Source: a virus
Direction: 5' to 3' (one strand)
Virus record (IMG/VR): IMGVR_UViG_3300030102_001905
Location: 1-64,000 of that record
Length of the DNA stretch: 64,000 bases
The notes under the pieces are model-generated. The model saw nothing but the letters and a program-made list of their open reading frames with translations, made no database searches and had not been told where the DNA came from. This document shows positions 1,892-63,047 of this stretch, in pieces (the first letter of the stretch is position 1; every line of letters starts with the position of its first letter). The position numbers and the translations under genes are program-made.

Positions 1892-1907
1892 TATATTAAT
1901 AATATAA
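1892..1907 (+). promoter_or_regulatory. Copy of the recurrent AT-rich motif TATATTAT-NN-ATATAG (here TATATTAA-TA-ATATAA), preceded by TTTG
   Basis: It lies in the 51-nt gap directly upstream of the ATG at 1909. The same core occurs at 29423-29437, 35355-35370 and 35442-35457, always in intergenic DNA upstream of + strand genes. Confidence 0.3.
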
Positions 1908-1908
1908 T

Positions 1909-4026: not shown

Positions 4027-4028
4027 TT

Positions 4029-6899: not shown

Positions 6900-6923
6900 A
6901 CTTAAAGAGTTTATTTTCAATCT

Positions 6924-6954
6924 TTTGTAAACTTAAAAAATAAAACTAATTTTG
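6924..6954 (+). promoter_or_regulatory. Bacteroidota-type sigma-A promoter candidate (TTTG-N19-TAATTTTG)
   Basis: TTTG at 6924-6927, a 19-nt spacer, then TAATTTTG at 6947-6954 match the published Bacteroides/Flavobacterium consensus TTTG-N19-21-TAnnTTTG. It sits in the 59-nt gap before the 1080-aa ORF, 4 nt from its ATG. Confidence 0.35.
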
Positions 6955-6958
6955 AACT

Positions 6959-9900
6959 ATGGCAACATATATTAAAGGAGCAGATACATATTTACCAGAA
7001 ATTACTCCGTTTACACCGGATTTTAAATTTCTGTCTGCTGTTTTAGATACTAGAACAGATAAATATGATGCTAATTTCCAAGCAACTAATGACCTTTATA
7101 ATAAGGTTGTGTATGCTGATCTATCTAGACAAGATACAAAAGATAGAAGAGATCAGTATGCAGAGACTATTGCACCACAAATTCAACAGATTTCAGGTCT
7201 AGATTTATCATTACAACAAAATGTTGATCAAGCAAAGTCTGTATTTGCCCCTTTTTATGATGATGATCTTACTGTAAAAGATATTGTTTATACTAAGCAG
7301 TATAGAGATGAGATGGCATATGCCAATAGATTATTAGATAATCCTGACCAAGTGCAAAGAGAAAAATACTGGGAGACTGGTATTAGAAAGATGCAGTATG
7401 AAATGGATGACTTTATAAATGGAAGTGAATCAGCAGCATTATCTGCACCACTACCAAAGTATATTGAAGACGCAGACTTAAATGAACTAGCTCAACAGAT
7501 TTTATCTGAAATGGATCCTCCACTTAAAATGAAGATGGACCGTTTTGCTACTGATGAAGATGGTAATGTCCAAACAGACTTTATTATTACAGAACAAAAT
7601 GGTAGACTTGTTACTGGAGCAGCATTAAATATTATAAAGAATAGATTACTAGATGATCCAAGAGTACAAAGAGCATATTATGCAGATGCATTTGTAAAGA
7701 GCAGGGATTTTGCAGCAGCGGGTATGAATGCTGGTCAGTTTAATACTGTTGATCAAGGTCAACAAGCATGGGCTGATGAAACTATATCAAGAATTAATGC
7801 ACTTAATGAGCAAAGAACTCAAGAAACTATAAAAGAAGTAAAAAAACTTGATGATGCAAATGTACGTTGGTCAAACTATAAAGCTAATAATGGAGTAGTA
7901 CCTGATTCTGATGAAGCAGAAGCAATAGAAGAACAACTATCTGTTGCAGAACAAACACAGCAAGCACTTGATGATATGCTTAATATAAATCAAGAAGCTA
8001 GAACACCAAGTAAAAGTGTACAGGGTAGTCTTAATAAAGCATATAATCTACTAATGAACTATAACATTATGGATGATATGCAGAAAGCTGCTACTGACTT
8101 TGCTGCAAGAGATCAAGAGTATACTATTAGAGAGAATAGATTTGCTCTGGCTGAAAAGGAGTTTAAATATGATTTAGCATTAGAAAGAGCAAGAGCTGCA
8201 AATGCATTAAATCTTGAAGCATTAAAACAAAAAAATAGACTTGATTTAGCTGCAGCAAAAGGTGAGCTCATGCAAGTTGACCCACTTGCTAGTATATTAA
8301 CTAAGCCTGGAGTAGAAGTTGGAGATGGTTCTTCTACAGTAGTTGCTGTTGATGATGATGGAGAAATCAGCCCTAATACAGATATGGTATTATTAAATCA
8401 GCAACAATTCCAAAATGAAGATAATAAAATACATAATAATCAAGTTAATGGTATATTAGAGTCATTACAAATTTTAGATCCAAAAGGTAATACAGCAGCA
8501 CAAGATCAAACATACCAACTTAAAGGTAGTGATGGTAACGTTTTAATGATAGGTGGTGTACCATTAGAAGGTAATATAGAAACGCTTAGAAATTTACTTA
8601 CTCAAGCTAATACAAATGAAGAGGATGGCTCTGTTATTAGTTATATAAATAGAGAGATTGTAGATCAAGTATATGATATACAAGCTGATAGAGTAAAAGA
8701 TACTAAACAAGTTACCATGAATGATCCTAATGTAACTCTTAGTGAGGATCAAAGAACACAATATGATGATCTATATAACGCATTTTTTGGTCTAAATGGT
8801 ATTGAGACACAAAGAAATACTTTAGCAGTACATACAAAAAAAATAAATGATCTAACATTACAGGCATATGATCTAATGGAATCTGAAGCATTAGCTGAAA
8901 GTAAAGGAAAAAATAATATTAATTTACTTACTCAAGCAGGATTTCCAAGAATTGTAGATGCAAACGGTAGTGTATTAAGCAAAGAAGAGTATACTAATTT
9001 AGTTATACAAGGTGTTGAAAATGGAACTATTGAAAACCCAGATTTATATGGGTATGATAGTGGTACAGGAAATAAAAACTATAAGGTTCATGCTTATACT
9101 ACTCAGTATTATGAATTTGGTCCACAGAAAACATATCAATATGATAGTCAAGGTAAACCAGTAATGGAAATTGACAGATCAGCAGTAGCAAATGATGTTA
9201 ATGCTATATATGATCAAATGTATAATATGCTTAATCAAGCTAGAACAGGTGCTAAGGGTGATATACCTACTGCAACATACAATTCTTTAAGATATGGTGC
9301 TGATCAGAATCCATCAGATGCAATTAGCATGCCTACATATACATATCCTATAAATCCATTGGCTGGTCTTGATCCAAATGCACGTGCTGAAATGGTTAAT
9401 TTATTTAATCAACTAAATACATTTGATAAAAAGGGACAAGTTTATGGTATATTACCAGGTGATTTAGATAATGTAGATGTAGAAGATTTACTTACAAAGA
9501 ATCCTTTAGCTGTAAGAGCACTAGAGCTTTATAAAGAAGATTTAGCAACATATTTAAATGATCCTAAACAAAGCCGTACAGATAAAATAGCACCAATAGC
9601 TACATTAAAATATAAACCAGTATACGGCCCAGCAGGAGAGGCTGTAAAAACAACAGCCGGATATCAGATTATATTTAGTCCTGAGTGGCTAGCTTCTAAA
9701 AAAGCAGGAACAACAGATGCACCAGTTGGAGCATTTACTACTGCAGAAATTAGACAGCTACAAGGATTAGATGATGAATCAGAAACATCAGCTGGAATTT
9801 CTATAGTATTTGAGCAAAGGCTTGATAATAATACTAAAGGGACAAACAACTCTTATTACTCTTTTGTAGAGTCTGATATACTTGCAAGTGAGAATGGATT

Positions 9901-10201
9901 TGCAGATTATACTATACCTGATGGTTTAGTTAATACTGCAGAATACAGAATCATAAAAGCTGGAACTGGAGATTATAAAATAAACTATACTGTAAATAGA
10001 TATGTACCATATGATCCTAATGCTGCACAAGGCACAACAGGAATATATGTACCCGAAACAGCAACTGCACCTGTAGATTTTTCATTAGGTTTACCTGGTG
10101 TAGATAGACAAGTAAAAGAACTACAATCTTATTTTGAAGGCATACGTAATTCAAATAGACTTGCCAAGAAAAAAGATACAGAGCAATACGGAGAGAGATA
10201 A
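6959..10201 (+). CDS. Large hypothetical virion protein (1080 aa)
   Basis: Uninterrupted ORF. Its stop overlaps the ATG of the giant ORF (TAATG at 10199-10203), implying translational coupling. No recognisable motif. Confidence 0.85.
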   Translation: MATYIKGADTYLPEITPFTPDFKFLSAVLDTRTDKYDANFQATNDLYNKVVYADLSRQDTKDRRDQYAETIAPQIQQISGLDLSLQQNVDQAKSVFAPFYDDDLTVKDIVYTKQYRDEMAYANRLLDNPDQVQREKYWETGIRKMQYEMDDFINGSESAALSAPLPKYIEDADLNELAQQILSEMDPPLKMKMDRFATDEDGNVQTDFIITEQNGRLVTGAALNIIKNRLLDDPRVQRAYYADAFVKSRDFAAAGMNAGQFNTVDQGQQAWADETISRINALNEQRTQETIKEVKKLDDANVRWSNYKANNGVVPDSDEAEAIEEQLSVAEQTQQALDDMLNINQEARTPSKSVQGSLNKAYNLLMNYNIMDDMQKAATDFAARDQEYTIRENRFALAEKEFKYDLALERARAANALNLEALKQKNRLDLAAAKGELMQVDPLASILTKPGVEVGDGSSTVVAVDDDGEISPNTDMVLLNQQQFQNEDNKIHNNQVNGILESLQILDPKGNTAAQDQTYQLKGSDGNVLMIGGVPLEGNIETLRNLLTQANTNEEDGSVISYINREIVDQVYDIQADRVKDTKQVTMNDPNVTLSEDQRTQYDDLYNAFFGLNGIETQRNTLAVHTKKINDLTLQAYDLMESEALAESKGKNNINLLTQAGFPRIVDANGSVLSKEEYTNLVIQGVENGTIENPDLYGYDSGTGNKNYKVHAYTTQYYEFGPQKTYQYDSQGKPVMEIDRSAVANDVNAIYDQMYNMLNQARTGAKGDIPTATYNSLRYGADQNPSDAISMPTYTYPINPLAGLDPNARAEMVNLFNQLNTFDKKGQVYGILPGDLDNVDVEDLLTKNPLAVRALELYKEDLATYLNDPKQSRTDKIAPIATLKYKPVYGPAGEAVKTTAGYQIIFSPEWLASKKAGTTDAPVGAFTTAEIRQLQGLDDESETSAGISIVFEQRLDNNTKGTNNSYYSFVESDILASENGFADYTIPDGLVNTAEYRIIKAGTGDYKINYTVNRYVPYDPNAAQGTTGIYVPETATAPVDFSLGLPGVDRQVKELQSYFEGIRNSNRLAKKKDTEQYGER

Positions 10202-13200
10202 TGGAAGATAACAATAACACATCTTTGGATACTACTATTAAAAGTAGTGAGAGACAGGCTAGCGTAATTCCTCAAGAACAATTTAACTTTGTTCCAATTG
10301 AGAGCATGTTTGAAACACCTGAGACAGACTTAGCTGCAGCTATAGCAACTAATCCTGATGAGATCTCTCTGATAGATCAACATAAAGTTGATATAGATAG
10401 ATATGGTATTGATGCTATGGCTAATCTTGGTGTAGCACGTCCTACCTTAGCTACTGATACATTTGATCCTGTACTTCAACAGAATCCTCCACAGAATACA
10501 TATAGCAACGTTAGAAACATATTACAAGCAAGATCAGATGGTCCTGCAGCAGATGAAGTTGCACCTACATTTTCTGGTATTAGAGCTAATAACTTTCTTA
10601 GATACTTTGAGCATCCAGAGTTTGAAGAATTAGGTTACAGACCATACTCTAACATAGAAGAGTATTATAATGCTAACTCTACAGTATGGGATGACATGGC
10701 TAGAATGAGTGGTCAGTTTAGTAGTCTTGTTGGTTCTGGATTTACTAGTGTATATAGGTCTATAGGTGATATTTTTGATGATGATGCATATTTTACTGCA
10801 CCTGATTTAAATACAGCTACAGAGTTTGAGGATGCTATGGCAATAGGTAACTCAAGTAGAGGTGGTGCGTTGGCTTGGACTAATAACTTATTACTAAATA
10901 GTGGTTATACATTTGGTATTATTGGTTCTATTGCTGTAGAAGAACTTGCATTAGCAGGTGCAACAGTACTAACAGGTGGTGGTGCAGCTCCAGCTGCAGC
11001 AACAAGAACTGGTTATAATGTTTTAAGACTTGGTAAGCTTGGTTTACAAGTACCTAAGTTCTTTTCTAAGAGTAGAGAGTTCTTAAATACACTAAGAAAT
11101 GTAGAAGCAGCTAAAGATTTCTGGTCTGCTGCAAGTACAGGTGGTAAAGTTTTAGGACAGATGTTTACTCCAAATACAATTTATGCAATTAAAAATTTAA
11201 AGACAGCAAAGAATGTATCTCAAAATGCTGTCAACTTAGCTAAAATGAGAGCCGGTTTTGGTGGCTTTTATAGAGATCTAAGAGCTGTAAACCTTGCTAT
11301 AGCTGAAAGCAAGCTAGAAGGTGGTATGGTTTACAATGAAATTGTAAGAGAAGGAGTAGATATAATGCAAAACAAATCAGGTGGTACAGTTACTCCTGAT
11401 GAAATGGCTACTATACAAAGTGAAGCTGCTAAAGGTGCATACTATACATCATTAGCTAATGCACCTATTATTTATGCTAGTAACTGGTTTGTACTAGGAA
11501 ATGCATTAGGAGGTTTTAATAGATCACTAGGTAGAGTATTTAATGATAGTTTTAGAAAAGGCTTTGCTGGTAGAATTATAAAAACAAAAGCAACAAGAGA
11601 TGCTGCAGGTAAATTAAATAAAAATGTATTTAGTGATGCAGGAGCAGGATTCAAAGGTTGGTTAAAGAAAGTTAGAGCAGGTGGTATAAAAGGTAATGCT
11701 GGTATGGCTGCTGCTGCAACCTTAAGATATTTTGCTGCTAATGTTGCTGAGGGTATACAAGAAGTATCACAAGAAGCTGTGTCATCAGCAACAAGAGGTT
11801 ACTTTACAACTGTACTTGAAGATCCTATGGCTGGTGGTATAGAGTTACGAAATGATATGATTCTATCTGGCATGGGTGATCAGCTTAGTGGAGAAGGCTT
11901 TAGTGTGTTTATGTCTGGATTCTTAATGGGTGGTATTGTACAAGGACCACAAAAGTTGTTTTTCCAAGGAGTTCCTGCAATTTATGATTATGGTCTTAAT
12001 CCTTTAGGTATAAATGTTGGTACGCAAAAACAAAAAGATGCTTTTGCAGAATATAAAAAGAACAAAGAAGAATTAATTAAGAGTCTTGTAGAAACACATA
12101 ACAATGCATGGAATACTCAAGTAGATGATCCAACAGCTATGTTTGATCCTAATAAGCTAAACTTTATGGTTCAAAAACAAGTAGCGGATGCTATGAAGAG
12201 TAATGTATTTGACCAAGATAAGTTTGGGTTTATAGATCAAAAAGATTTTGCTAAGTTTCAGCAGATGTATACCATATTCCAAATGGGTACATCTAATATA
12301 TTTAGAGGTCAGTTACAAGACTATCTGACTATGACTGATGAAGAATTAGCAGAAGCATTCCCATCATCTAAAACAGATATTAAACAGGGTAAAATTAGAG
12401 GTAGGATTCAGGATATGATTAACAACATAGATAAGGTTGAGAATCAATATAATGAAGCTAAGAATAGATTCCAAAACCCTTTTGATAGAACTCAATATAA
12501 AAAAGGTACAAGAGAGTATATACAAGAAGCACTTAAAGAATCAGCATATGAACATGCTAGATATCTTTATATGTTTACTCAAGATGGATTTACACGTGCA
12601 TTAGAAAGATCTAATTCTATATTTCAGAATCTTGCAAATGATCCACTATTTGAGAACATGGCAGCTAGTGATATGACAGTGTTATTAGATCTAGATGCTA
12701 TAGATAATGAGTTAAGGCTACTTGCTACTGAGATTATAATCAATGAGGGTGATAATGCTACAACTAGAAAGGATAAAAAGAAGAAAGAAGAAAAGTTAAA
12801 AAGACTTACAGCTATCAAAGCTATTCTTACAGACCCAAAAAATTTAACAAAGAGTGGTGCTTTTGATAGAAGAAAGATAAGTAGCCTTAGAAAAGAGTTT
12901 TATAACTATGTAAGATATATGGCATCTTCTGCCGGATCTTTTGTAGATAATACAAAGATAGATGAGGCACTAAAAGAAGTGGTAGATTATCATGCATTAA
13001 AAGATAGAGCTAAGGTCTATGATAAAGCTATTGAGTATTTACAAAACCCAGAAAGATTTAATGAGATTGTTGATAGACAATTAGAAATCAACAAAGAAAT
13101 ATATAAAAATCTTCAAAAGAGACACAAACAAAATATTGAAAAGTATATAGAAATTGTTGAGGCAAATCAATTAGTAAATGAATTAGCTGAGCTTGGTGTC

Positions 13201-16200
13201 TATGGAGATCCTACAGAAGTCAAGAATTTCTTGATGAGCGGTAATGCAAACTATCTAAAGAGTTTTTATACAGAGCAAGGTTTAGTTGATAAGAGAGTTG
13301 ATAAAGCAAAGTATGAGCAAATTCAAAGAAAACTTGATACATATAGAAAGGCTACTGAAGTTGATACAACAGAAGCAACAGAAACTAGTGAGAAACAAGC
13401 TCAGGTTGATGCACAAGAAACAAAAAATACCCAAGACCAAATCTTAGAAGAAAACGAGGTTGATGTAATATTACCTGAAACTAATAATACTCCTATGCTT
13501 AATGAGTTATTAGAGAGAAGATATAAAAGGTATGCATCTACACAGGCTGTAATTGGAGAAAAAGTGTTACCCTTTGAAGAGTGGAGAAATACAGAAGAAG
13601 GCCTTACATTACAAAATACATTTAATGCTATAAAGAAAGTATGGGCACAAGGATACTATACTACTGATGCAAAAGGTAATGCGGTATTTGTAGAAGTATC
13701 AGAAGCAGATTTAAAATCAGAAAAAGGCTTTAAGGAATATTTAAATTCAAGAGAGGCTAGAGAAAGTGATTTAATAGCTAGTGTTTTAAAATCTGCTGGT
13801 TTAGAAATTTCTGATATTGTAGAGCAAGAAGAAACATTACCAGAAGAAGGTGATATAGTAAAAGGTGATAAGAATAAAACTATTTATAAGAAAGGTATAA
13901 TTGCTAATGTTGTTAAGATTACTACAATAGATCCTGTATCAGGAGATGCAGTAGCTTTATTCAAGTTAGTAGATAGCCAAGGTAATAATTTACCATCAGC
14001 ACTATTAGACCTAGTTAGTTCCCAATATGGTACATTTGATAATGCTAGTTCTGCAGTAGCAGCACTTAAGAAGATAGAAAAAACAGCACCGGACTCAGCA
14101 GACTTTTTGTTTGATGATGTTGTACTAAATCAAGGTATGCTTGTATATGACAAGAATGGTAAAGAATTTGTTGTGTTAAGCACACCAAAGCAAATACAAG
14201 GTGGTTACTTACGTTTAGTTGCATCAGAAGACAACATTGCTAACGTAAAAGAAAGAGAGAAAAAAGTAATCAAGTTACAAGAGGGTCAGTTTGCAAATAA
14301 CTATTCTGTACAGGAACTTAAGTTTGAGGTGCTACCTAAGAATGTATCTAGACTGAACATTAGTGAGCCTATTACACCATATCCTCATATGAATTTTACT
14401 ACTGGAGAAAGTAGAGAAGGTGCATTATCTAGATACAACGCTATAATCTCTGAGCTAACTCCTGCTGAGATAGCAGCATTAGAGCTTGTTGTTACATTAG
14501 ATCCACAAGGTGGTACAGAAAGTGGTTTCTACACTATACCCGGTAACCCCTCTAATCCTTATATAAAGATTAAAAGAAGTAAGTATGTTATTGGTCTTAG
14601 AATAAATAACCCAGATACTCAAGCAAGAGTTAATTTAGTTCTTGAAAGAAATGGTATACCACAAGTAGATAGTGATCAAAATATATTTGCATACCTGCCA
14701 AATCAAAATGTTGAGATGGTAGATCCGCAAGGTAATATTATAGATCCTAGAAACATGTCTAGAGATCAAGCTAATAATACAATATTTGTAAGCAACACAC
14801 TTAGTCAACAGATGAGTAAGCCAGATATATTAAAACTTGCTCAAAACAATTTTGCACTAAATGCACTATTAGTATCTACACTTGACTCCCTAGGTATTAC
14901 ATCAGAAACTACAGCTGTTTTATCTGCTAATGATTTACCGTTTAGTATGTCTATTATTATAGAGGGCGGTGTAATGGATTATGATAATAGTTCTACAAGG
15001 TCTCTAAGAGATTTAAATTATCAGTCTGCAGATAACCAAGGTAACTTCTTAGTCTATGATTTAAAGATGGGCAAGGATGGTAAGAGAACAGAACAATCAA
15101 TAACTAATCTAGAAGGCTCTGAGGCACGTGCTTTAAGAGATCAGGTAGAAGCAGGATTGAAAGCTCAAGGTTTATGGAATCAAATGATAGAAGGTACAGA
15201 CAGATATGTAGCTGCTGTATTATTACCAAATGGTACATATGGTTTAGTAAACTTAAAGGCAGAACAGTTTAGTGCAGAAGACTTGACTGGTTTAGCTACA
15301 GACTTGGTAGAAAGAGCACAGCTTACACAAAAAGAAAATCTTGATGATAAAGGGAAAGAGAAAGATCTAGCTTATAATAGTGAATATAATGCACAGTTAG
15401 GAGAAAGTTTATTTATTAGTACTATCCCTGGATATACAGTACAATTACAAGTAAATCCTTTTGGTAAAATACAGATGCAGCTCTTTGATAAGACAAGTCA
15501 GCAGCAAGTTGGTAAGACTGTAGAGCTATCTAAGGATAAGATTAATGACACATCTTTAAGTGTATCTGATAAGATGCAAACATTAATAGATTCATTCAAT
15601 GAAGAAGCTGACATCAAAGCATCAGGTGTAAGTGTCAGTGGTAAGAACTTTAGAAACTCATTTCCTGATGGGACTACTGTAGAAGAAATTATTAGTAAAA
15701 CAAGTACTAATGTTACACCGCAGGTCATCAAGCAACAGAAATTAAGACTTACTGCTGACTCAGCAGCAATACAAGCATCAAGAGATGTTGATGCAAATAC
15801 AGATAGAAAAGTAGAGCCTATTGCAAGACCAGAGCCTACAGTAACTATTGCTGAAGAAGCTGAAGAAAGTATATTAGATCTTAGTGAAGAAGAGTTTAAT
15901 GATTATGCAGCTGATGACTTTGTTAATATGCCATCAGAGTTTATGGAGCATATTGTAAATAAAAAGCTAAGAGGTGAAGAACTTAATGATAGAGAAAAAC
16001 AAGTAGAAAGAATAAAGCTTAGTGAAATTACACTGGCTGTTGCTAAACGTGGTGGAGAAGGTTCAGTTACTATTGAGACTGAGACAGAAACAGTTGAGAA
16101 AAAAGATTCTCTATCACAAGTTATTAGGCAACTTGATGAGTTAAAAGCTCAATTACTTGAAGGAGTTGATGGTAGAAGCAGAAACAAAGTACTAAGAGAA

Positions 16201-19200
16201 AATAAAGAGTACCAAGATCTTTTAAAGATACGGAAGGCACTTGAGAAAGAAGCAAACAAAGTATTGCCAGCTGAACTATCTAATGAAGATATAGAAGACA
16301 TAAATGCATTTACAGTATGGGCAAGTGATAACTTACCAGACTATATAGATATACAAGACATTGCTACTTTAGGTGATAATCTTAAGGCAGGTGGTGTACG
16401 TGTTGGTGCATTTGTTCTTGGTTTAAATAATATTGCAGGTAATGTAAAAGTATCAGGTACAATATATACAGGTGCAAGAAGCCCATTTAAATATCATGAG
16501 GCTTTCCACGGTGTATTTAGAATGTTGTTATCTGATCAAGATATAGCAAGATACCGTAGCATTGCTAGAAAAGAAGTACGTGCAAAACTTAGAGCAGAAG
16601 GTAAAAGCTTTGAGAAAGAACTACAAAGATTTAGAAACTCTGCTGATACATATACTAATATGAGCAGAAAGGAACTTGAGAATGAGTACTATGAAGAGTA
16701 TATGGCAGATGAGTTTGAGAAGTTTAAGACAAATCCAAAGAGCACTAAGACAGATGCTAGTGTCAAGTCTTTATTTACTAGGATTTTGGATTGGATTAGA
16801 TCTGTATTTAGTTCATATAACAAGAACGAGTTACAAACATTATTTGAAAAAATTGACTCAGGTAAATTTAAGGGTGCATCAATAGCATCAAATGAGTTTA
16901 CTGCACCATTAGTAGAAGGTATAAGTGTAGAAGCAAACGCATTGATACCTTATGCATCAGAAAGATCAGGTGATAAAGTTGGTTATATTTATTTAGATAG
17001 TGATATAGCAGACCCAATGATCCGTAGTATAGCAGCAATGTTTTTAAACAGAACGGCAGCTATAGAAGGAGCATATAATCCACAAGCTGTTCTAAATGAG
17101 CTTATGGATGATTTTGCTTGGTTATATAGTCCTGACAACCCAACTAACCAAAACAAAGATGAGTTACAAAAGAAAAGACTATCTGAAATAGAATTAGCTT
17201 TTGATAATTACTCACAAGAAATATTAGAAGAAACTGTTAAGCTTTTAAATATTATTAGTGATCAAGATGTAGATCAAGAATTTACAGTTGATGAATTCCA
17301 AGATGATACAGGTCTAAGAACTACATCACAGTATGACAAGGATGCATCACTAATTGGAGGATTTAGATCATTATCTTCTAAATTAAGAGCTTATATTGCA
17401 ACAACAACTGTTGCGTCAACAGACTACTTTGGTAATGAAGAGCTGGTTGATGGTGAAAAATTAATTGTAGCTGTCAACTTTGTAGATGCATATAATGGAT
17501 TATTAAAGTCTGTAAAAAGTATAGAGGATCCATTGAAGATCTTACAGAGCATGTACTTCTTTGGTCAAGACAATCCACAAGCTGGAGCTGTTGTAAATAG
17601 AATTTTACAAGATGTAGGAATATCAGAAGAAGAATTACTATCTGGTGCTTCATTACCAGTAGAGTTGAAAAATGCACCATTATTACAGTCTATTCTAAAA
17701 GGTTTTGAAAACTTTAGAGTTGACTATATATTTAATGAAAGAGATTCACAAGGTAATATAAGAATCTACAGTGCATCTGAAAGAGATGATATTAACTCAC
17801 AACTTGATAGATGGAGCCAAGCTTTTATTAGTAAAAGAAAACAACTGGTATCTAACCCAAAAAGAAAGAGATCAACAAAGACCTTATTAGAAGATATATC
17901 ATCTGATCTACAAGTATCTGAAAAAGCAATCACTAACGTTAGAATGGAAAATGACTCTAAAAAATACTCAGAGTTATTATTTGATTTAGTTGGTATAAAG
18001 CTTAGTCCTATGTATTTGCAGTTTAGTATGGTGGCTAATAGACCATCTAATAAACTTACTGTAAAACAAAAAGCATTAGTTAATTTATATGCACAAGAAA
18101 CACCTTTATCTGTAGATGATGTAAATCAGTTAAACTTATTACTGCAACAAGATGAGAATATTTTTGCAACAGATGACTCAGGAATGAGCTCAAGACTAAA
18201 AGTAATGAGTATAAATAATGCTCCTTTTGATGAAACAATTGGTGCATCAGTATTTAAAAATCCAAATGGTGATTTGGTATATGCACATCAGCTGCCTACA
18301 TACCATCTTAAAAAAGTAGCATCATTAAATAACCAGGTTGAGTTAGAAAAAATTAAAGACTCTGACCCATATATGGACAACAATTACCTGCTTAATAATA
18401 GTGCCTTTAATAAAATGTCTGAAGAGAATAGACTAAAAGTAACTAGAGTTGCTGGTAGTAAAGTAGGACAGTCATTGCAGAGTGAGTCTGATATTAATGA
18501 TAACATATCTGGTGTTACATCAACATCTACATATGGTGATTTTACTCCACAAGAGTTTGCACTTAGTGTTATAAATAATTACACTGCTTTATTCAATACA
18601 AAAAGTAATAAAGTACAAACTGTAGAAAGCTTAGATGAAGAGGGTAAAGCTATTGTCACAGCACTAGCTCCTGTATTAATTAGAGTTATGGAAGCTTCTA
18701 ACACAGGGGATATGATTAATCTTCCTGTAATCAAAGCTGTTGATTTTGTAAATGGTGAAGCGGTATTAACAGAGGAAGCTGTAGATGTATATGTAAATCA
18801 AATAAGAACTGAATTCTCTAGAATAAACAGAGAATCAAATGAAGCAACACTTACAGGAGAAGAGATACTTGGTTATAATAGTATTGATGGTAGAGCTTAT
18901 AAGCTTCACAATACTAGACTTCTATTAAGCAATGAAACTAAAACAAAATTAGAAGGCATTGCAGTATCACAAGGTAAAGACGGTAATCCTATAACTCTTG
19001 ATGAGTCACTAAAGTTTGCAGGTATTACTATGACACAACTAAGAAAAGAAGTTGTAGATAATTTAGAAATACAATTTAATGAGTTCCAAGAACTAATTAC
19101 AGAACTTAAGATAAAAGATCAGATATCTAAAAACATAACAGATGGTTTAGTTGTTGCACAAGGTGTATCTAGAAAGAATACTATAGCATCTGCAAAGGCA

Positions 19201-22200
19201 CTGAACCTAAACTTTGATGAGACACATAACCTAAAACAGATATTCTTTAATGATTGGATTAATAGTAATGCAATAAATGAAATACTGCTTGGTGATCAGG
19301 CTGTATCTCTAAAAGATTCTGTTGATCAAGTTAAAAGAGCTAAGATGCAAAATGCATCATACTATAGTGCATATAGTGCTGTTACTGCTCCTGAACTAGG
19401 TGTAACTCATCCAGTAGAAGATATTAGTTTAGTTACATTAGAAGAGCCTAAGTCAGGTAATATAGATGTTGCGGATGCACAAATGTATATTACTACTAAA
19501 GCATTCAGATATATGTTCTTTGGTTTTGGTAAGTTAAGTCCAGCACAAGCAAAGCTGATAACAGATGTAGAAAACGGTATACCAATTAGCTCAGATAGAA
19601 TATTTGGTACAGTTGAAACACCTGAAGGTTTAGCTAAAATGCAGGCTATGCTTAACTCTAAAAAGCTTGTTTATGGTGATGGTAGTACATTCTTAAAGAT
19701 GTCTGCTTTTGTACTTACACCTGACTATACTTCAAACTGGGATGGTTCTAAATGGGTTCCTAAACCTAATAGAGTAGCACTTCACAATCTAAGAGTAAAG
19801 CTTGAGGCTATTGAGGATACAAAGGACACCATAAGTATTGCAGCTCCATTGAGTGCAATCAAAATGAAAAAACAGCGTATTAACTCTCTTGATGATCTAA
19901 AAACAGATAGTCCATTCAGTAATGGTCATACTACACTAGATGCAAGATTTATGGGATTACAAGTTCTAAATCCATCTAATAAGTTAGAAATAGTAGATCC
20001 TACACAGATAAAAGAAATTGCAACATCAGAGCAAAAAGATGATGTGTTTGTTGATGGACTTAACATGACTGTTGGGGAAATCAGACAAGCATATAATGAT
20101 GCTGTCTCAAGAAGAGTTGTACTAAAATATAAAAACAAAAGAAATTTAATCTTCAGTTTGGATACCGCTCTTGATGAGTTTAGAGTATCTAAAGAAGAAG
20201 GAGCTATAACTCCAAATCTTTCTGCATTCTTAAATTATGCAGTTGCTGGATTAAAAGCATCACAAGCTAGTAGTAACTTATTAGAGTTCTTTTCTACTAC
20301 AGACGGTGTTCAAAATTATAATCTTAATAACCCTATTACTATTAAGAAGTTTGAGCAGTTGTTCTTTAGTTACTTCAGTAGAGGTGTATTATCTGAAAGA
20401 ACACCAGGTGTTTCATTAACTCTTGTTTCTGACTTTGGTAATAGTGTATATAGAAGAGTATTTGAAATAGATGAGAATGGAGTACCAGTAAGATCAGAAG
20501 TTATAAGACAAGATGTTTGGGAAAGAATGGGTAACAAGCCTGAGCTTTCTAACATAGAAGATCTTACAAATAACAATATACCCAAAGAAGGTGTAGTTGT
20601 ATTAGATAGATTAAGATCTGGCCTTATAGAGTATGATGCACAAGGAAAACCTACAGGGCAGAGATATACTGAGATGATGATGCCAGCTCACCAGAAAGAG
20701 GTTATGGACTTAATACAAAATACTGATGCACCTATTCCTGATGTAGTAGCTAAAATGTTTGGTGTAAGAATACCATCACAAGATAATCATTCTACAGTAA
20801 ATATGAAGATGGTTGATTTCTTACCTGTATATTTTGGATCATCAGCAATGTTTGCAGAAGAGCTAATAGAAATATCAGGTGCTGACTTTGATATTGATAA
20901 AGTGTTTGCACAGATAAAAGAGTTCTATGTAAAAGATGATCAGTTTATTGAGTATGGTAAAGGTAAAAATGTAAGTGAAAAATACAGTGAGTATGTTCAA
21001 TATGTAAATAACAAAGTAGAACAGAAAGGAACTCAGTACTCAGAAGCATTAGGTATCTATAACAATAGAGAAGGAGCTGCAAGAATTCAAAACTCAGTTG
21101 ATGATGTTGAACAAGATATTGCAACTGATGCAGGCTTATCAGAAAATGCACTAAATGCATTAAAGATTCTTGGCTTACCTATTACACAAAAACAGTATGG
21201 GGAGTATGTAGCTAAACATGGAGAGCCATATGAGGCACCTATGAATAATGATGTACTTGACTATAGATATGCACTTATGGGCAACCGTGGTGTTACAGAA
21301 GGAAGTAATCCTATATCATATCAACCAGCAACAACAGATGTACTTACAGATACCCTTGACTTCTTAGCAAGTCAGTCTGAAGTTTTTGCTGAAAGAGTTC
21401 AAGAAGACAACGTTGATGTAGATAATTTATCAGGTAAGATAAAAGCATTTAGAGCTAACAAGGGTGCTTCTATTGGTGCTATTGTATTACCTAACTTATA
21501 TTTAAGTTTATTAACTGAGTACAACATCAAACTGAATGAAAGCATAAGTATTAATAGTAAATCATATAATAACTTTGGTAGAACGCTAGATGATAATGGT
21601 CAAAGAAAACAAGATACATTATCAGCACTAATTACTATGGCAACAGACAATGCAAAAGATAGACTTGTTGCTAAGTTAGGATTAAATAGACATGCAATGG
21701 GTGTTGTTGCTAACTTGACAGCATTAGGTGTACCTATACAAACTTCTATACTATTAATCAATCATCCAGTCATACAAGATTTATACTCAGAAGCTCTTAA
21801 TAAAAAAGATAAGCTTGATCCTGGTATGGATACTTTAGTAAGGAACAAACTTGCAGAGATTAAGAAAGAAGTCAAGGCAGAGCCTGTTAATGATAGATTC
21901 TTGTTAGATGTTATAGATAACCCACAAGATGAAAGTGCAGGAGAACTTAAAGGTGTTCTTTCATTATTTAGCCAAGTATTGAGAATTAAAAATTACACTG
22001 GTAAGATGGGAGCTGTTACAAGTTTATCTAAAGGTTTAGGTAAAAATGTAGCTAGCATTAGAGAAAAATCTACTGATATAAAATCACTATTTGCTCAAGA
22101 TGCACCTATGGATTTATCTCCTATATATAAAGGTAAGACTTGGCAAAATCAATACTTAAAAATATTCTATCAGATTACAGATGATTTATTACCTGCAACA

Positions 22201-23676
22201 TTCTTAACTGCAAGTGCATCTTTTAATACTATATTATCAAGTGTTCTAGACAATATGGATACTAGAGGTATTAGCTTTAATGAAGAGGTAATAGAAAGTA
22301 TTTCTACAGATCTATTGTCTTACTTAACAATAAAAGCATACCAACAAAATCAATTAGAGAATGATCAACAAAGAGTTGCTACACTAAGTAATGATATATT
22401 ATATCCAACAGATTATGAATCTATAAATGATATAATAAATAGATTAAAGGGTACAGAAGAAGGTGCAAACAACTTCTTCCTAGACAACTTTATAATTAGC
22501 CTGCGTGCTAATGAAGTTGATAACCAAACAGGTCTTAATCTTGCAAATGCAAATACTTTTAGAAATCTATCAGCTGCACAAAAAGTTGACTTACAAAGTG
22601 ACTTTGCAAAACTGTTTGGCTCAGTAAAAACTAAGAATGATGCAATGTCAATTGTAAACTATATAATGGTTAAAGATGGATTGCAAGTTAAATATGCATC
22701 ACTTTTAGAAGCTATCAGTCCTTTTGTTATAGGTAATTACCTTGATCAAATTAACAGTGTAGAGAAGGCCCTAAGAGGTGAAGCAAGTTTTGAGTCTGTA
22801 TTTGGTATTAGCCAAGAAGAATTACAACAAGAGTTTGAGAATGGATATCTTTTGTCTAATGTTTCTGGTGCAAAGTTATACACGTTTGTACGTAATGAAG
22901 TTACTGGTAGTTTACCTCAAGGTGTATCAGTAAAAGATGATGTTGTAACTGTAGCTTGGGAAAAAATGGGAATAGAAAACCCACCAAAATATTTAAGAGT
23001 AGGTGTTACAAATATTTTATCAGGTGTTACAAATTATAAAACCTATGGTAGAATAGAAGAATCAAATAAGTATGAGGTTGTAGAGACTATGGGATCAAAT
23101 CAACAGACTGCTATTGGATTTATGTTTGGTGATAGACCTACTTATAAAAGTGTAAGAGACTATGTAAAAAAGAAGAACCAAGATACTTCTGTAACAGACA
23201 TAACAGATAGCGTTGCTATTGATGAAACCAAAGGTATTCAAGAGCAGGTTCTTAAAAATGATAACAGTAATATTGAAGCAACAGAAAGTTCAGTAGAAGT
23301 ACAATTAGATCCTGAAGCAGAAGCTGTAAACTTAGCTAATACAGCAGCATTGCTTGAACAACTTGGCATGGACACTGAAGCACAAGATAGAGGTGAGGCA
23401 GAGGCCAATGTTATTGATGATGTTGATCAGTCATTACCAGAAGTCAGTCAAGTTGAAGAACAACTTATGCTTGATTTTGAAACTGAAATAGATGAGCAAT
23501 ATCCAGAGATAGCAAATTTCTGGGATGCAAACATCCAAGGAAATAAAGACGCAATGAGATTGCTAAGAGCTCAAAAAATATTATCTTTAGAAGACTTTAT
23601 AGGGAAATATGAAGAAGGCGTTTATGATGATACAGAACAATATTTAGACTTTATTAAGTCTTGTATATTAAAATAA
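10201..23676 (+). CDS. Giant polyvalent virion protein (4491 aa) with a C-terminal crAss-like two-barrel RNA polymerase signature, an HExxH motif and an N-terminal hydrophobic region
   Basis: A 13,476-nt ORF with no stop. GVRIPSQDNHS...ISGADFDIDKVF (DFDID = nt 20884-20898, residues 3562-3566) parallels NRAPTLH...NADFDGDQM of RNAP beta'. HEAFH lies at nt 16495-16509 (residue 2099). Gly/Ala-rich hydrophobic stretches lie at nt ~10861-11970. Confidence 0.7.
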   Translation: MEDNNNTSLDTTIKSSERQASVIPQEQFNFVPIESMFETPETDLAAAIATNPDEISLIDQHKVDIDRYGIDAMANLGVARPTLATDTFDPVLQQNPPQNTYSNVRNILQARSDGPAADEVAPTFSGIRANNFLRYFEHPEFEELGYRPYSNIEEYYNANSTVWDDMARMSGQFSSLVGSGFTSVYRSIGDIFDDDAYFTAPDLNTATEFEDAMAIGNSSRGGALAWTNNLLLNSGYTFGIIGSIAVEELALAGATVLTGGGAAPAAATRTGYNVLRLGKLGLQVPKFFSKSREFLNTLRNVEAAKDFWSAASTGGKVLGQMFTPNTIYAIKNLKTAKNVSQNAVNLAKMRAGFGGFYRDLRAVNLAIAESKLEGGMVYNEIVREGVDIMQNKSGGTVTPDEMATIQSEAAKGAYYTSLANAPIIYASNWFVLGNALGGFNRSLGRVFNDSFRKGFAGRIIKTKATRDAAGKLNKNVFSDAGAGFKGWLKKVRAGGIKGNAGMAAAATLRYFAANVAEGIQEVSQEAVSSATRGYFTTVLEDPMAGGIELRNDMILSGMGDQLSGEGFSVFMSGFLMGGIVQGPQKLFFQGVPAIYDYGLNPLGINVGTQKQKDAFAEYKKNKEELIKSLVETHNNAWNTQVDDPTAMFDPNKLNFMVQKQVADAMKSNVFDQDKFGFIDQKDFAKFQQMYTIFQMGTSNIFRGQLQDYLTMTDEELAEAFPSSKTDIKQGKIRGRIQDMINNIDKVENQYNEAKNRFQNPFDRTQYKKGTREYIQEALKESAYEHARYLYMFTQDGFTRALERSNSIFQNLANDPLFENMAASDMTVLLDLDAIDNELRLLATEIIINEGDNATTRKDKKKKEEKLKRLTAIKAILTDPKNLTKSGAFDRRKISSLRKEFYNYVRYMASSAGSFVDNTKIDEALKEVVDYHALKDRAKVYDKAIEYLQNPERFNEIVDRQLEINKEIYKNLQKRHKQNIEKYIEIVEANQLVNELAELGVYGDPTEVKNFLMSGNANYLKSFYTEQGLVDKRVDKAKYEQIQRKLDTYRKATEVDTTEATETSEKQAQVDAQETKNTQDQILEENEVDVILPETNNTPMLNELLERRYKRYASTQAVIGEKVLPFEEWRNTEEGLTLQNTFNAIKKVWAQGYYTTDAKGNAVFVEVSEADLKSEKGFKEYLNSREARESDLIASVLKSAGLEISDIVEQEETLPEEGDIVKGDKNKTIYKKGIIANVVKITTIDPVSGDAVALFKLVDSQGNNLPSALLDLVSSQYGTFDNASSAVAALKKIEKTAPDSADFLFDDVVLNQGMLVYDKNGKEFVVLSTPKQIQGGYLRLVASEDNIANVKEREKKVIKLQEGQFANNYSVQELKFEVLPKNVSRLNISEPITPYPHMNFTTGESREGALSRYNAIISELTPAEIAALELVVTLDPQGGTESGFYTIPGNPSNPYIKIKRSKYVIGLRINNPDTQARVNLVLERNGIPQVDSDQNIFAYLPNQNVEMVDPQGNIIDPRNMSRDQANNTIFVSNTLSQQMSKPDILKLAQNNFALNALLVSTLDSLGITSETTAVLSANDLPFSMSIIIEGGVMDYDNSSTRSLRDLNYQSADNQGNFLVYDLKMGKDGKRTEQSITNLEGSEARALRDQVEAGLKAQGLWNQMIEGTDRYVAAVLLPNGTYGLVNLKAEQFSAEDLTGLATDLVERAQLTQKENLDDKGKEKDLAYNSEYNAQLGESLFISTIPGYTVQLQVNPFGKIQMQLFDKTSQQQVGKTVELSKDKINDTSLSVSDKMQTLIDSFNEEADIKASGVSVSGKNFRNSFPDGTTVEEIISKTSTNVTPQVIKQQKLRLTADSAAIQASRDVDANTDRKVEPIARPEPTVTIAEEAEESILDLSEEEFNDYAADDFVNMPSEFMEHIVNKKLRGEELNDREKQVERIKLSEITLAVAKRGGEGSVTIETETETVEKKDSLSQVIRQLDELKAQLLEGVDGRSRNKVLRENKEYQDLLKIRKALEKEANKVLPAELSNEDIEDINAFTVWASDNLPDYIDIQDIATLGDNLKAGGVRVGAFVLGLNNIAGNVKVSGTIYTGARSPFKYHEAFHGVFRMLLSDQDIARYRSIARKEVRAKLRAEGKSFEKELQRFRNSADTYTNMSRKELENEYYEEYMADEFEKFKTNPKSTKTDASVKSLFTRILDWIRSVFSSYNKNELQTLFEKIDSGKFKGASIASNEFTAPLVEGISVEANALIPYASERSGDKVGYIYLDSDIADPMIRSIAAMFLNRTAAIEGAYNPQAVLNELMDDFAWLYSPDNPTNQNKDELQKKRLSEIELAFDNYSQEILEETVKLLNIISDQDVDQEFTVDEFQDDTGLRTTSQYDKDASLIGGFRSLSSKLRAYIATTTVASTDYFGNEELVDGEKLIVAVNFVDAYNGLLKSVKSIEDPLKILQSMYFFGQDNPQAGAVVNRILQDVGISEEELLSGASLPVELKNAPLLQSILKGFENFRVDYIFNERDSQGNIRIYSASERDDINSQLDRWSQAFISKRKQLVSNPKRKRSTKTLLEDISSDLQVSEKAITNVRMENDSKKYSELLFDLVGIKLSPMYLQFSMVANRPSNKLTVKQKALVNLYAQETPLSVDDVNQLNLLLQQDENIFATDDSGMSSRLKVMSINNAPFDETIGASVFKNPNGDLVYAHQLPTYHLKKVASLNNQVELEKIKDSDPYMDNNYLLNNSAFNKMSEENRLKVTRVAGSKVGQSLQSESDINDNISGVTSTSTYGDFTPQEFALSVINNYTALFNTKSNKVQTVESLDEEGKAIVTALAPVLIRVMEASNTGDMINLPVIKAVDFVNGEAVLTEEAVDVYVNQIRTEFSRINRESNEATLTGEEILGYNSIDGRAYKLHNTRLLLSNETKTKLEGIAVSQGKDGNPITLDESLKFAGITMTQLRKEVVDNLEIQFNEFQELITELKIKDQISKNITDGLVVAQGVSRKNTIASAKALNLNFDETHNLKQIFFNDWINSNAINEILLGDQAVSLKDSVDQVKRAKMQNASYYSAYSAVTAPELGVTHPVEDISLVTLEEPKSGNIDVADAQMYITTKAFRYMFFGFGKLSPAQAKLITDVENGIPISSDRIFGTVETPEGLAKMQAMLNSKKLVYGDGSTFLKMSAFVLTPDYTSNWDGSKWVPKPNRVALHNLRVKLEAIEDTKDTISIAAPLSAIKMKKQRINSLDDLKTDSPFSNGHTTLDARFMGLQVLNPSNKLEIVDPTQIKEIATSEQKDDVFVDGLNMTVGEIRQAYNDAVSRRVVLKYKNKRNLIFSLDTALDEFRVSKEEGAITPNLSAFLNYAVAGLKASQASSNLLEFFSTTDGVQNYNLNNPITIKKFEQLFFSYFSRGVLSERTPGVSLTLVSDFGNSVYRRVFEIDENGVPVRSEVIRQDVWERMGNKPELSNIEDLTNNNIPKEGVVVLDRLRSGLIEYDAQGKPTGQRYTEMMMPAHQKEVMDLIQNTDAPIPDVVAKMFGVRIPSQDNHSTVNMKMVDFLPVYFGSSAMFAEELIEISGADFDIDKVFAQIKEFYVKDDQFIEYGKGKNVSEKYSEYVQYVNNKVEQKGTQYSEALGIYNNREGAARIQNSVDDVEQDIATDAGLSENALNALKILGLPITQKQYGEYVAKHGEPYEAPMNNDVLDYRYALMGNRGVTEGSNPISYQPATTDVLTDTLDFLASQSEVFAERVQEDNVDVDNLSGKIKAFRANKGASIGAIVLPNLYLSLLTEYNIKLNESISINSKSYNNFGRTLDDNGQRKQDTLSALITMATDNAKDRLVAKLGLNRHAMGVVANLTALGVPIQTSILLINHPVIQDLYSEALNKKDKLDPGMDTLVRNKLAEIKKEVKAEPVNDRFLLDVIDNPQDESAGELKGVLSLFSQVLRIKNYTGKMGAVTSLSKGLGKNVASIREKSTDIKSLFAQDAPMDLSPIYKGKTWQNQYLKIFYQITDDLLPATFLTASASFNTILSSVLDNMDTRGISFNEEVIESISTDLLSYLTIKAYQQNQLENDQQRVATLSNDILYPTDYESINDIINRLKGTEEGANNFFLDNFIISLRANEVDNQTGLNLANANTFRNLSAAQKVDLQSDFAKLFGSVKTKNDAMSIVNYIMVKDGLQVKYASLLEAISPFVIGNYLDQINSVEKALRGEASFESVFGISQEELQQEFENGYLLSNVSGAKLYTFVRNEVTGSLPQGVSVKDDVVTVAWEKMGIENPPKYLRVGVTNILSGVTNYKTYGRIEESNKYEVVETMGSNQQTAIGFMFGDRPTYKSVRDYVKKKNQDTSVTDITDSVAIDETKGIQEQVLKNDNSNIEATESSVEVQLDPEAEAVNLANTAALLEQLGMDTEAQDRGEAEANVIDDVDQSLPEVSQVEEQLMLDFETEIDEQYPEIANFWDANIQGNKDAMRLLRAQKILSLEDFIGKYEEGVYDDTEQYLDFIKSCILK

Positions 23677-41600: not shown

Positions 41601-41966
41601 AACATTACTACAGATGTTAATACTGTAAAGAACTTTATAAATGCTCTAGAAACAGCTGCTGGAAATAATACTATATATAGAGGTATTTTCTTTAATGTTC
41701 TTGGAGGTTATACTCCTGGTCACGATAATCTTGAACCTTTATTAGGGCCAACAGGATTGAACGCTACAGGTGGTGTAATTGCAAATGGATTTGGATATCC
41801 TCCTGCAGCATCAGCTTATGATCCTGTAAATGATACATTATATCCAGAGTCACACGGGTCTCCAACTAGAATTAAATATAGACCTGATATGACAGATGGT
41901 GCTTCTCAATCTTATTACTATAATGAGGTTAGAGCAGGGCTTAACAGTGTAGGATTTAGCTTGTAG
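38625..41966 (+). CDS. Large tail fibre / adhesin (1113 aa) with tandem repeats, a cadherin/VCBS-like segment and a C-terminal vWA-like MIDAS motif
   Basis: The ~64-aa repeats are LDLTEDRIVIVGPNGELEDDGNLTF (nt ~39051-39125) and VEDLTEDRIVIVGPNGELEDDANFTM (nt ~39243-39320). VTVTVNAVDDAPEW lies at nt ~40600-40631. YFVFWSDTSGSM (DTSGS = nt 40944-40958) and VVVMGFADES also occur. Confidence 0.6.
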   Translation: MSVYTQEVLGLLKRNKKKIKLDRIRDHFEFGKLYRNSSLNTGAAYNPTMEPFVIKWGDFKCATEEGMVRQDPTGTEERHITMWTDPVFQGECQTATITKTIISQNIAGNEINIAGDLDVDNNLNVDGNALIDLQLTAGSANILDLTEDRIVIVGPNGELEDDGNLTFNGSFFNIGQGNFTVQVSTGNTQIVGTLDVDSQATLASANVEDLTEDRIVIVGPNGELEDDANFTMDGTTFTANVNVVHGTDVPGGTPAETTTINSNLKLEGPVYDSLGNIGSLNKVLVGLADGRVKWQDDDVVEALTYGALWQGDPTNYKVELPIGTAGQILISDGTTFSWQDDPYVDGNGTLYRLPLWTPDGDSLGDSLLIQDGDVNTPATQVQNDGMLKNVGIVKLDSVAQDDTLTQVLVRDTGNANEVKFRDAASIKPAVGFDTLDMTPDGWASTDGNFNAYVKLDDSTTPIKNIKDMNWLVDGDRVLVIAENVKTGSLLADNVLRFPTWGTGQQVFNQTSWNQASIGTGWTGAIDNGYQTSTLLYGEKLKIRGEMYDTPGVSDRQMNWDACCKIYSNNACPVANNLNFTIDEDTGLSNTVNVSDDGYGGYGLTYTVIQQPNNAKTFTFDTATGGFTLTPDLNFFGTITFTYQANDGYCDSNVATVTVTVNAVDDAPEWTSTDPVTANTYPNLTGGDTWTYNWTVADADTPCGSLTFPSQTIPSWLTFTNNGNCTGTLTGTFPNTGGNFPVQLNVSDGTSTASQSFTIGGLAVTKDTYFVFWSDTSGSMNTTISVMSRMVSAAEVKVQATTISGSSVTLTNGANTRKINDSTGTCSKAFLAIHDGMEVTAGGSGVPSGTTVVSGGGTQNLTLSNSITSTSGTVLTFKPTQAMKDADYADTTNLRNLLQDFYATGGTKGSGNTDPATNGQDFYDSHIYWCHDPVERQIDHLGNRGQGNTIGPSGYFPDADGVVVMGFADESSDYGLAGTGGGTWADRASSTVGNITTDVNTVKNFINALETAAGNNTIYRGIFFNVLGGYTPGHDNLEPLLGPTGLNATGGVIANGFGYPPAASAYDPVNDTLYPESHGSPTRIKYRPDMTDGASQSYYYNEVRAGLNSVGFSL

Positions 41967-62954: not shown

Positions 62955-62957
62955 AAG

Positions 62958-63042: not shown

Positions 63043-63047
63043 ATATG

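Follow-up and report, generated by a model that had tools for sequence, protein, structure and literature searches.

Within the window considered here, a stretch of 64,000 nucleotides (nt) comprising positions 1 to 64,000 of the IMG/VR virus record IMGVR_UViG_3300030102_001905, a single open reading frame (ORF) on the + strand runs from an ATG at 10201 to 23676 and specifies 4,491 amino acids (aa). Such a gene raises the question of what a virus does with one polypeptide of this size and whether it is, in fact, one polypeptide. An earlier note, based on inspection of the sequence, had pointed to the long uninterrupted frame and had proposed that it encodes a virion RNA polymerase (RNAP) of the two-barrel type found in crAss-like phages. 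The frame is indeed there and is conserved in relatives, and the polymerase assignment has been borne out by homology to phi14:2 gp66 and crAss001 gp50, by a predicted fold closest to gp66 and then to QDE-1, and by a homologue of phi14:2 gp65 and crAss001 gp49 encoded downstream. We estimate a probability of roughly 0.85, on the evidence of sequence homology and structural models, that the ORF encodes a gp66-family virion RNAP fused to a protein like gp47 of crAss001 and gp45 of p-crAssphage. It would then be the giant virion RNAP of a marine crAss-like phage, whose single chain unites two proteins made separately by phi14:2 and crAss001.

The polymerase is recognized in the C-terminal part of the protein. 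When residues 2800-4491 were compared by tblastn with 50,697 phage records (2.3 Gb), 68 records matched, all of them crAss-like phages or gut-phage sequences, and the matched genes were RNAP genes wherever they had been annotated. The top match was a crAss001 'putative RNA polymerase' (expect value (E) 4e-14, residues 3476-3889), and pairwise blastp yielded alignments with residues 1265-1863 of phi14:2 gp66 (E 2e-10) and with crAss001 gp50 (E 1e-18). The DFDID to which the earlier note had drawn attention is found at residues 3562-3566 within ISGADFDIDKVF, and the GVRIPSQDNHS that it had placed upstream lies at 3521-3531. According to the gp66 preprint, members of this family carry a DFDxD motif with Ile or Val at position 4, as does the motif here, and the DFDID of gp66 (residues 1361-1365) is required for activity. 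In an alignment of 44 sequences, the three aspartates, D3562, D3564, and D3566, are invariant, together with R3523, P3525, S3531, and K3221, among others. The size that the earlier note gave for gp66, about 2200 aa, is close to the actual 2,180 aa, and its size comparison is right.

The structural comparison with gp66 and QDE-1 that had been suggested as a check gave a similar picture. An AlphaFold2 model of residues 3001-4200 has a predicted local distance difference test score (pLDDT) of 84.6 and a predicted template modelling score (pTM) of 0.84. In Foldseek searches it matched chain A of 6VR4, the gp66 structure, with an E of 9.9e-29, a query template modelling score (TMq) of 0.68, and 1,314 columns. 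Next came QDE-1 structures at 4e-5 to 2e-3, followed by P23-45 gp96 at 0.1, and the matches to cellular beta' subunits were non-significant (E about 1). A second model, of residues 1900-3050 (pLDDT 76), also matched 6VR4 chain A (E 1.9e-13, 982 columns), and its BFVD matches were fragments from the N-terminus of crAss-like RNAPs, among them the initial 1,090 residues of a structural protein of phi14:2 that is presumably gp66. At the level of the overall predicted fold, two double-psi beta-barrel domains, a connector, a bridge helix, and a trigger loop are present in one chain; the positions of these elements were set by offset from the gp66 coordinates rather than by residue-level superposition. 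The fold of an N4-like (T7-type) virion RNAP was not found, since the significant fold matches are all two-barrel enzymes (gp66 and QDE-1), and no T7-type polymerase is among the matches listed in the two PDB fold searches. Because both models match 6VR4, the part equivalent to gp66 is, as judged from the models, the span from about residues 2050-2280 to 4491. Thus, the polymerase module takes up about the last half of the protein and is not limited, as had been thought, to the last quarter.

Some results weigh against this assignment. Neither the whole 4,491-aa protein nor 1,500-aa pieces of it gave a match in Pfam or PHROG, no PDB sequence was matched, and consequently the homology rests on BLAST-level matches (21-23% identity) and predicted structures. 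PDB sequences were searched by phmmer and hmmsearch with the whole protein, the polymerase segment, and a 6-sequence family profile, and nothing was retrieved; 6VR4 itself was missed. Thus, gp66 escapes these hidden Markov model (HMM) searches, yet it is matched by BLAST and Foldseek. An hhalign comparison with a 4,498-column profile gave gp66 a probability of 97% but no aligned columns, and gp65 and gp67 gave nothing. In addition, the catalytic loop has a pLDDT below 50 at model residues 558-564 (window 20872-20892), where confidence in this otherwise good model is lowest; the gp66 crystal shows this loop in an unusual, inactive conformation. Finally, membership of the phage in Crassvirales proper is not established, since the window does not extend to its capsid, portal, and terminase genes.

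What, then, is the remainder of the protein? The earlier note had counted more than 3000 residues fused upstream of the polymerase. The ~2,280 residues ahead of the gp66-like part are no novel addition; they are homologous to a separate conserved crassvirus cargo protein, gp47/gp45, with the HEAFH motif included. Residues 2064-2226 match residues 2132-2293 of crAss001 gp47 (E 1e-6), a protein of 2,341 aa with TYHEAFHVVF at 2157, so that the HEAFH region corresponds to the C-terminal end of gp47; this region also matches cr118_1 gp14. Farther upstream, a profile of the N-module (residues ~125-1100) built from 191 homologues matches gp47 residues 426-681 (E 4e-9, in a small database). The N-module occurs both at the N-terminus of giant fusions and in stand-alone proteins of 1.4-2.4 thousand aa. 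Searches of PDB and PHROGs with this profile returned coiled-coil noise plus a ParB-like domain in one member. As far as sequence can tell, residues 1 to ~2280 are the counterpart of crAss001 gp47 and p-crAssphage gp45. An equivalence with phi14:2 gp67 has no sequence support and is backed indirectly by crAss001 gp47 and by position in the gene order. A hydrophobic region had been reported here as well, and a segment at residues 238-258 does exist; its Kyte-Doolittle mean of ~1.6 is modest, and it is not a clear transmembrane helix because two Glu lie inside it.

Extra domains appear in several relatives. P0021 carries NADAR and DUF7831 and P0008 carries DUF7831, all in the C-terminal quarter; P0164 is named a NUDIX-family protein by its source; and one stand-alone N-module protein, a member of A5, matches ParB-like PHROG families. 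Domains of this kind are typical of polyvalent injected proteins.

Taken together, these results lead to a model of the fusion protein. Its first ~2,280 residues would contain the widespread N-module, a variable spacer, and the highly conserved HExxH domain, while the part from ~2280 (with fold similarity from ~2050) to 4491 would contain gp66-like helical domains, the two double-psi beta-barrels, the DFDID loop, the bridge helix, and the trigger loop. The gp66 preprint reports that gp66 orthologues and two adjacent gene products are virion proteins; here the gp65/gp49-like neighbour is encoded downstream (E 1e-36 with crAss001 gp49 and 3e-6 with phi14:2 gp65 in pairwise blastp), and the gp47-like part is fused in front. 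Bayfield et al. (2023) detected gp47, gp49, and gp50 in crAss001 virions and proposed that partly unfolded cargo is extruded from N- to C-terminus. By analogy with gp66, the 4,491-aa protein would be packed in the capsid and pass out through the tail, either before the DNA or together with it. It would then refold and transcribe early genes independently of the host polymerase.

An ORF of this length might instead be an artefact of assembly or sequencing that fused two genes in frame, and the region is indeed split in three relatives (L001, L002, and L013). However, the split versions lack the terminal cysteines seen at genuine gene junctions, and their stops and frameshifts fall inside conserved sequence. 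The chance probability of 4,491 stop-free codons at 33.5% G+C is ~1e-150, and the start codon shares one base with the stop of the 1,080-aa ORF before it (TAATG). The same length is found in two IMG/VR contigs that are 99% identical over a 600-residue query segment, and in eleven more distant IMG/VR loci the homologue is mostly one ORF of 4,505-4,775 codons; six full-length homologues align end to end with 48-60% identity. An exhaustive HMMER search with residues 1-1200 found matches in 866 representative clusters, the best 150 of which were inspected for the motifs. Among these 150, at least 40 clusters (at the 50% identity level) have proteins of 4,350-5,724 aa that carry both motifs. In these giant representatives, HE[AS]FH is found in nearly all, at ~1,930-2,430, with another HExxH there in two, and DFDxD is found in every one, at ~3,380-4,460. 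Given independent single-ORF contigs from many samples, the giant clusters, and the defects of the split versions, we consider an artefact to be ruled out for practical purposes.

The splits themselves are read as sequence errors in L002 and L013, and in L001 as either a sequence error or an unexplained replacement. In L002, otherwise conserved coding sequence is interrupted within ~250 nt by four in-frame stops and one frameshift (L002:8640-8900), probably through a local assembly error. In L001, a 404-nt segment with stops in all frames (L001:9621-10025) replaces 253 nt of coding sequence within the giant gene. A group I intron was considered for this stop-rich segment of ~400 nt, and Rfam returned no match up to an E of 1; an assembly error, an unrecognised intron, or another kind of insert could account for the segment.

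If the protein is made as one chain, it might still be cut. The earlier note had suggested a self-processing polyprotein, and its polyvalent and self-processing ideas restate published hypotheses, in which cleavage of fused polyproteins and a role for the zincin have been proposed. In this scheme, the HExxH zincin would release a gp47-like protein and a gp66-like RNAP from the 4,491-aa precursor, either while virions are assembled or once ejection has taken place, and might also remove a segment that blocks the cleft. The HExxH that had been noticed is the only one in the protein, HEAFH at 2099-2103, and the domain around it is the most conserved part of the protein: the 100-aa stretch with the highest conservation, residues 2101-2200 (window 16501-16800), has 78% identity among close relatives versus 68% around DFDID. 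H2099, E2100, H2103, and E2166, the last of which lies 62 residues downstream in EEYxADxF, are invariant in 21 diverse sequences, and in sequence this is the gluzincin pattern. The best match of the domain in a PDB profile search is the M34 Pro-Pro endopeptidase 6FPC (6fpc_A), aligned across HExxH at a borderline E of 0.012, and GenBank labels p-crAssphage gp45 'fused to zincin protease'. However, no Pfam match was significant, as single members of the HExxH domain gave sub-threshold hits to ATLF (0.035) and M41 (0.031) only, and Foldseek with model 1900-3050 found no peptidase; in that model the strands ahead of the HExxH helix are built poorly, with low confidence. A metallopeptidase is, from its motifs and a borderline profile match, the most economical, though tentative, reading of the domain. 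Furthermore, no motif for a cleavage site was identified, and in crAss001 and p-crAssphage, whose neighbouring modules are separate genes already, the domain is just as conserved. Consequently, cutting a fusion cannot be its only or general role, and self-processing appears to us rather unlikely.

The fusion of modules is best understood by comparison with other phages. When the N-module is designated A, the zincin-like domain Z, the RNAP R, and the gp65/gp49-like protein B, the present phage has the arrangement [A-Z-R][B]; crAss001, IAS virus, and cr128_1 have [A-Z][R][B]; and p-crAssphage and cr8_1 have [A-Z][R-B]. Annotation and the positions of the motifs indicate the two-gene layout of p-crAssphage for crAss002 as well, the B part of its gp33 being putative. 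The metagenomic loci L101 and L102 have [A][Z-R…], and cr118_1 gp14 is [?-Z-R], since no similarity to module A could be detected in its first 1,700 residues. In four individually measured one-chain lineages, the HExxH-to-DFDID spacing is 1,463, 1,475, 1,490, and 1,508 aa, and it reaches ~2,300 aa among other giant representatives.

Each of the named relatives shares some features with the present protein and differs in others. Like it, phi14:2 gp66 has an identical DFDID, the upstream R-I-P…S strand, a Cys near the C-terminus, and a gp65-like gene downstream, and the predicted fold matches it at E 1e-28 and 2e-13 over about 2,100 residues. However, gp66 is the product of a separate gene, ~2,280 extra residues are fused ahead of its counterpart here, and identity is about 21%; furthermore, phi14:2 gp67 has no HExxH, the only one in that block being in gp65. 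In crAss001, the C-terminal HEAFH region of gp47, gp50 (the RNAP half), gp49 (the downstream ORF), and the terminal cysteines all have their equivalents here, but gp47, gp50, and gp49 are three separate genes, with gp47 on the opposite strand, whereas the gp47-like and gp50-like parts form one polypeptide in the present phage. In p-crAssphage (Carjivirus communis), gp45 (1,957 aa, HExxH at 1743) is annotated 'putative RNAP associated protein fused to zincin protease', and gp44 (4,070 aa), annotated 'RNAP catalytic subunit fused to unknown RNAP subunit', is a giant fusion from the same three building blocks. There, it is the RNAP and the downstream protein that are joined; here, it is the upstream protein and the RNAP. 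The same single-chain design is seen in cr118_1 gp14 (YP_010110531, 4,946 aa; Suoliviridae), in which HEAFH is at 1734 and DFDID is at 3209, so that the motifs are 1,475 aa apart as against 1,463 aa here. Unlike the present protein, it comes from a gut phage, aligns only locally (21-35% identity), and has four more internal Cys; it is annotated 'exonuclease V / DNA helicase'.

More distant systems complete the comparison. Neurospora QDE-1, whose structures are the second-best matches, and the cellular beta/beta' RNAPs share the two double-psi beta-barrels and the DxDxD metal loop, but they have no sequence-level similarity to the present protein, in which position 4 of the motif is Ile, not Gly. 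Coliphage N4 virion RNAP (~3,500 aa) is likewise a giant polymerase that is packaged and ejected, with flanking ejection and encapsidation domains; however, it is a T7-like single-subunit polymerase of unrelated fold. A giant fused RNAP is therefore not new, as cr118_1 gp14 and p-crAssphage gp44 are known precedents, and a review has called RNAPs "up to ~6000 aa" a crAss hallmark. What the present locus adds is the extension of this hallmark to a marine group that is abundant, with at least 599 related loci in IMG/VR and 866 N-module clusters. It also shows three building blocks, the N-module with its zincin-like domain, the RNAP, and the gp65-like protein, whose points of separation and fusion vary from lineage to lineage, and these points consequently define domain boundaries for experiments.

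How might such proteins leave the capsid? A possible answer comes from their cysteines. The 4,491-aa protein has one Cys only, Cys4488, fourth from the C-terminal end (…FIKSCILK), and the 1,894-aa protein encoded downstream has one Cys only, at residue 4 (MATC…); the upstream ORFs of 705, 956, and 1,080 aa have none. Thus, five consecutive putative cargo proteins (window 1909-29367; 9,126 aa) hold two Cys in total. The other proteins in the window contain 1.2% Cys on average, a frequency at which the chance of one Cys or fewer in 4,491 residues is 7e-23. The tail proteins just upstream in the closely related contig L018 (1816-8930) are Cys-rich, with 34 in 2,049 aa and 8 in 316 aa. Among 185 homologues of at least 1,300 aa, Cys has a frequency of 0.04%, and 168 of the 185 have a Cys within the last 12 residues, versus 0.5% expected; most homologues without a terminal Cys end inside conserved sequence and look truncated.

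Furthermore, 21 gene junctions from nine phage groups were examined, and at 20 of them the C-terminal Cys of one protein is followed by an N-terminal Cys in the next. In phi14:2, gp67 ends in …NTIC, gp66 starts with MAC and ends in …QECK, and the only Cys of gp65 is at residue 3. In crAss001, gp47 has Cys2339 of 2,341 residues, gp50 has Cys5 and Cys2404 of 2,412, and gp49 has Cys5; the pattern in cr128_1 is the same. IAS virus gp058 is Cys-terminal, gp057 has Cys5, and the RNAP has a Cys three residues from its end; the N-terminal part of this RNAP is annotated as a separate gene (gp055, Cys5), and that junction is less clear. Fused arrangements retain the pair at the junctions that are left: gp45 of p-crAssphage has Cys1956 of 1,957 and gp44 starts with MSC, the cr8_1 protein has Cys2337 of 2,338 and the next has Cys5, and cr118_1 gp14 has Cys4943 of 4,946 and is followed by a protein starting with MIC. 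L101 and L102 have Cys at -4 and -2 and are followed by proteins starting with MKC and MNC, and the pairing is present in all eleven close relatives. The metagenomic part of this comparison took in loci L001-L017 and L101-L107. Wherever modules of the RNAP block are fused, the pair is absent; moreover, the series begins with a protein that in no case carries an N-terminal Cys and closes with one that in no case carries a C-terminal Cys. Two exceptions were seen, namely crAss002 gp33, whose first Cys is at residue 35 and whose start may be wrong, and p-crAssphage gp47, which has a C-terminal Cys without an evident partner.

The simplest model that we can infer from this sequence pattern is head-to-tail linking into one thread. 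Across crAss-like phages, the cargo proteins of the RNAP block would be joined through the C-terminal Cys of one and the Cys at residues 3-5 of the next, by a disulfide or a shared metal, ejected in fixed order, and released in the reducing cytoplasm. We offer this tentatively, with somewhat less than even confidence. In the present phage, a peptide bond may have replaced the first junction so that only that between Cys4488 and Cys4 remains, and the near-total lack of other Cys in about 9,100 cargo residues may protect this pairing. The pattern is not mentioned in the literature examined, and Cys-based chaining of injected proteins is apparently undescribed.

Applied to the giant protein, the linking model offers an alternative to self-processing. 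The protein would stay intact, with Cys4488 linked to Cys4 of the 1,894-aa protein in a covalent chain of ~6,400 residues; this chain would be ejected with its N-terminus leading, and its disulfide would then be reduced in the cytoplasm. Gene fusion and disulfide would be interchangeable. The near-terminal position of the single cysteines in both proteins (-4 and +4), the excess of terminal Cys among homologues, the junction pairs from phi14:2 to the close relatives and their loss in fusions, and the unpaired ends of the series all argue for such a chain, and crAss001 virions have been found to contain many inter-subunit disulfides. However, the bond itself is deduced from the pattern, disulfides do not normally form in the cytoplasm, where capsids are assembled, and the two exceptions above do not fit. 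The cysteines would also be compatible with a shared metal site or with attachment of the proteins to some other component of the virion. An unprocessed, disulfide-linked thread is therefore a possibility that we would put a little below an even chance. If it is true, Cys chemistry would offer an explanation, open to direct test, of the fixed order in which huge cargo proteins are released from the capsid, and it would also explain why gene fusions are tolerated. The features of the ORF and of its immediate neighbours are collected in Table 1.

Table 1. Position of features in and around the 4,491-aa ORF (window coordinates; residues refer to the protein).
Feature	Position	Strand	Basis
Whole ORF, 4,491 aa; probable fusion of a gp47/gp45-like cargo protein and a gp66/gp50-like virion RNAP	10201..23676	+	homology, alignment
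Conserved N-module, residues ~125-1100	10573..13500	+	866 representative clusters
Conserved Gly/Ala-rich, moderately hydrophobic segment YTFGIIGSIAVEELALAGATVLTGGGA, residues 236-262	10906..10986	+	
Variable middle, residues ~1101-2030; 31-46% identity among close relatives; holds the natural fission point of L101 and L102	13501..16290	+	
HExxH (zincin-like) domain, residues ~2040-2230	16318..16890	+	
HEAFH motif; H2099, E2100, and H2103 invariant	16495..16509	+	
E2166 in EEYxADxF, invariant; candidate third metal ligand	16696..16698	+	
Mostly helical domains, predicted equivalent of the gp66 N-terminal ~1,000 residues	16891..19350	+	model 1900-3050
Predicted two-barrel RNAP core, residues ~3051-4100: beta-like barrel with invariant K3221, connector, beta'-like barrel, bridge-helix/trigger-loop region	19351..22500	+	predicted fold, alignment
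GVRIPSQDNHS, residues 3521-3531; R3523, P3525, and S3531 invariant	20761..20793	+	
DFDID, residues 3562-3566, catalytic by identity with gp66; three Asp invariant	20884..20898	+	
Conserved TMATDNAK, residues 3812-3819, in the bridge-helix/trigger-loop region			
C-terminal domain and acidic tail, residues ~4101-4491	22501..23673	+	
Cys4488, sole Cys of the protein	23662..23664	+	
Three upstream ORFs (705, 956, and 1,080 aa), no Cys; candidate further cargo/ejection proteins	1909..10201	+	ORF list, Cys count
Downstream 1,894-aa ORF, homologue of crAss001 gp49 and phi14:2 gp65 (RNAP-associated protein); only Cys at residue 4 (MATC…, nt 23692-23694)	23683..29367	+	blastp

The giant gene lies in a + strand block of large ORFs of 557 (with an SLT lytic transglycosylase domain), 705, 956, 1,080, 4,491, and 1,894 aa. 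Within the 1,894-aa product, residues 478-559 have a weak Pfam match to PD-(D/E)XK (E 9e-4), and residues 407-616 resemble residues 1654-1854 of crAss001 gp47 (E 2.5e-7), a likeness that suggests that a domain has moved between proteins of the block. The phage genomes gave no match by megablast, and the capsid, portal, and tail proteins of phi14:2 gave none in the relatives' loci, the structural module lying outside those loci. A 2,049-aa tail protein encoded upstream matches crAssE-Sib, Cellulophaga phi17:2/phi4:1, Flavobacterium FpV phages, and one Leptolyngbya phage.

The block of large ORFs is followed by ribonucleotide reductase genes and then by a replication module on the - strand that encodes PolA, a DnaB-like helicase, a primase, a Sak4-like protein, and other helicases, together with three tRNAs. 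A 1,113-aa ORF at 38625-41966 (+) contains Big_9/cadherin-like domains; its match to rifampin ADP-ribosyltransferase (Arr-ms, E 2e-4) is below threshold. The helicase gene at 61658-62788 adjoins the three tRNA genes (62881-63121), and it is the related loci of this helicase, at least 599 in IMG/VR, that indicate that the phage group is abundant in the environments sampled.

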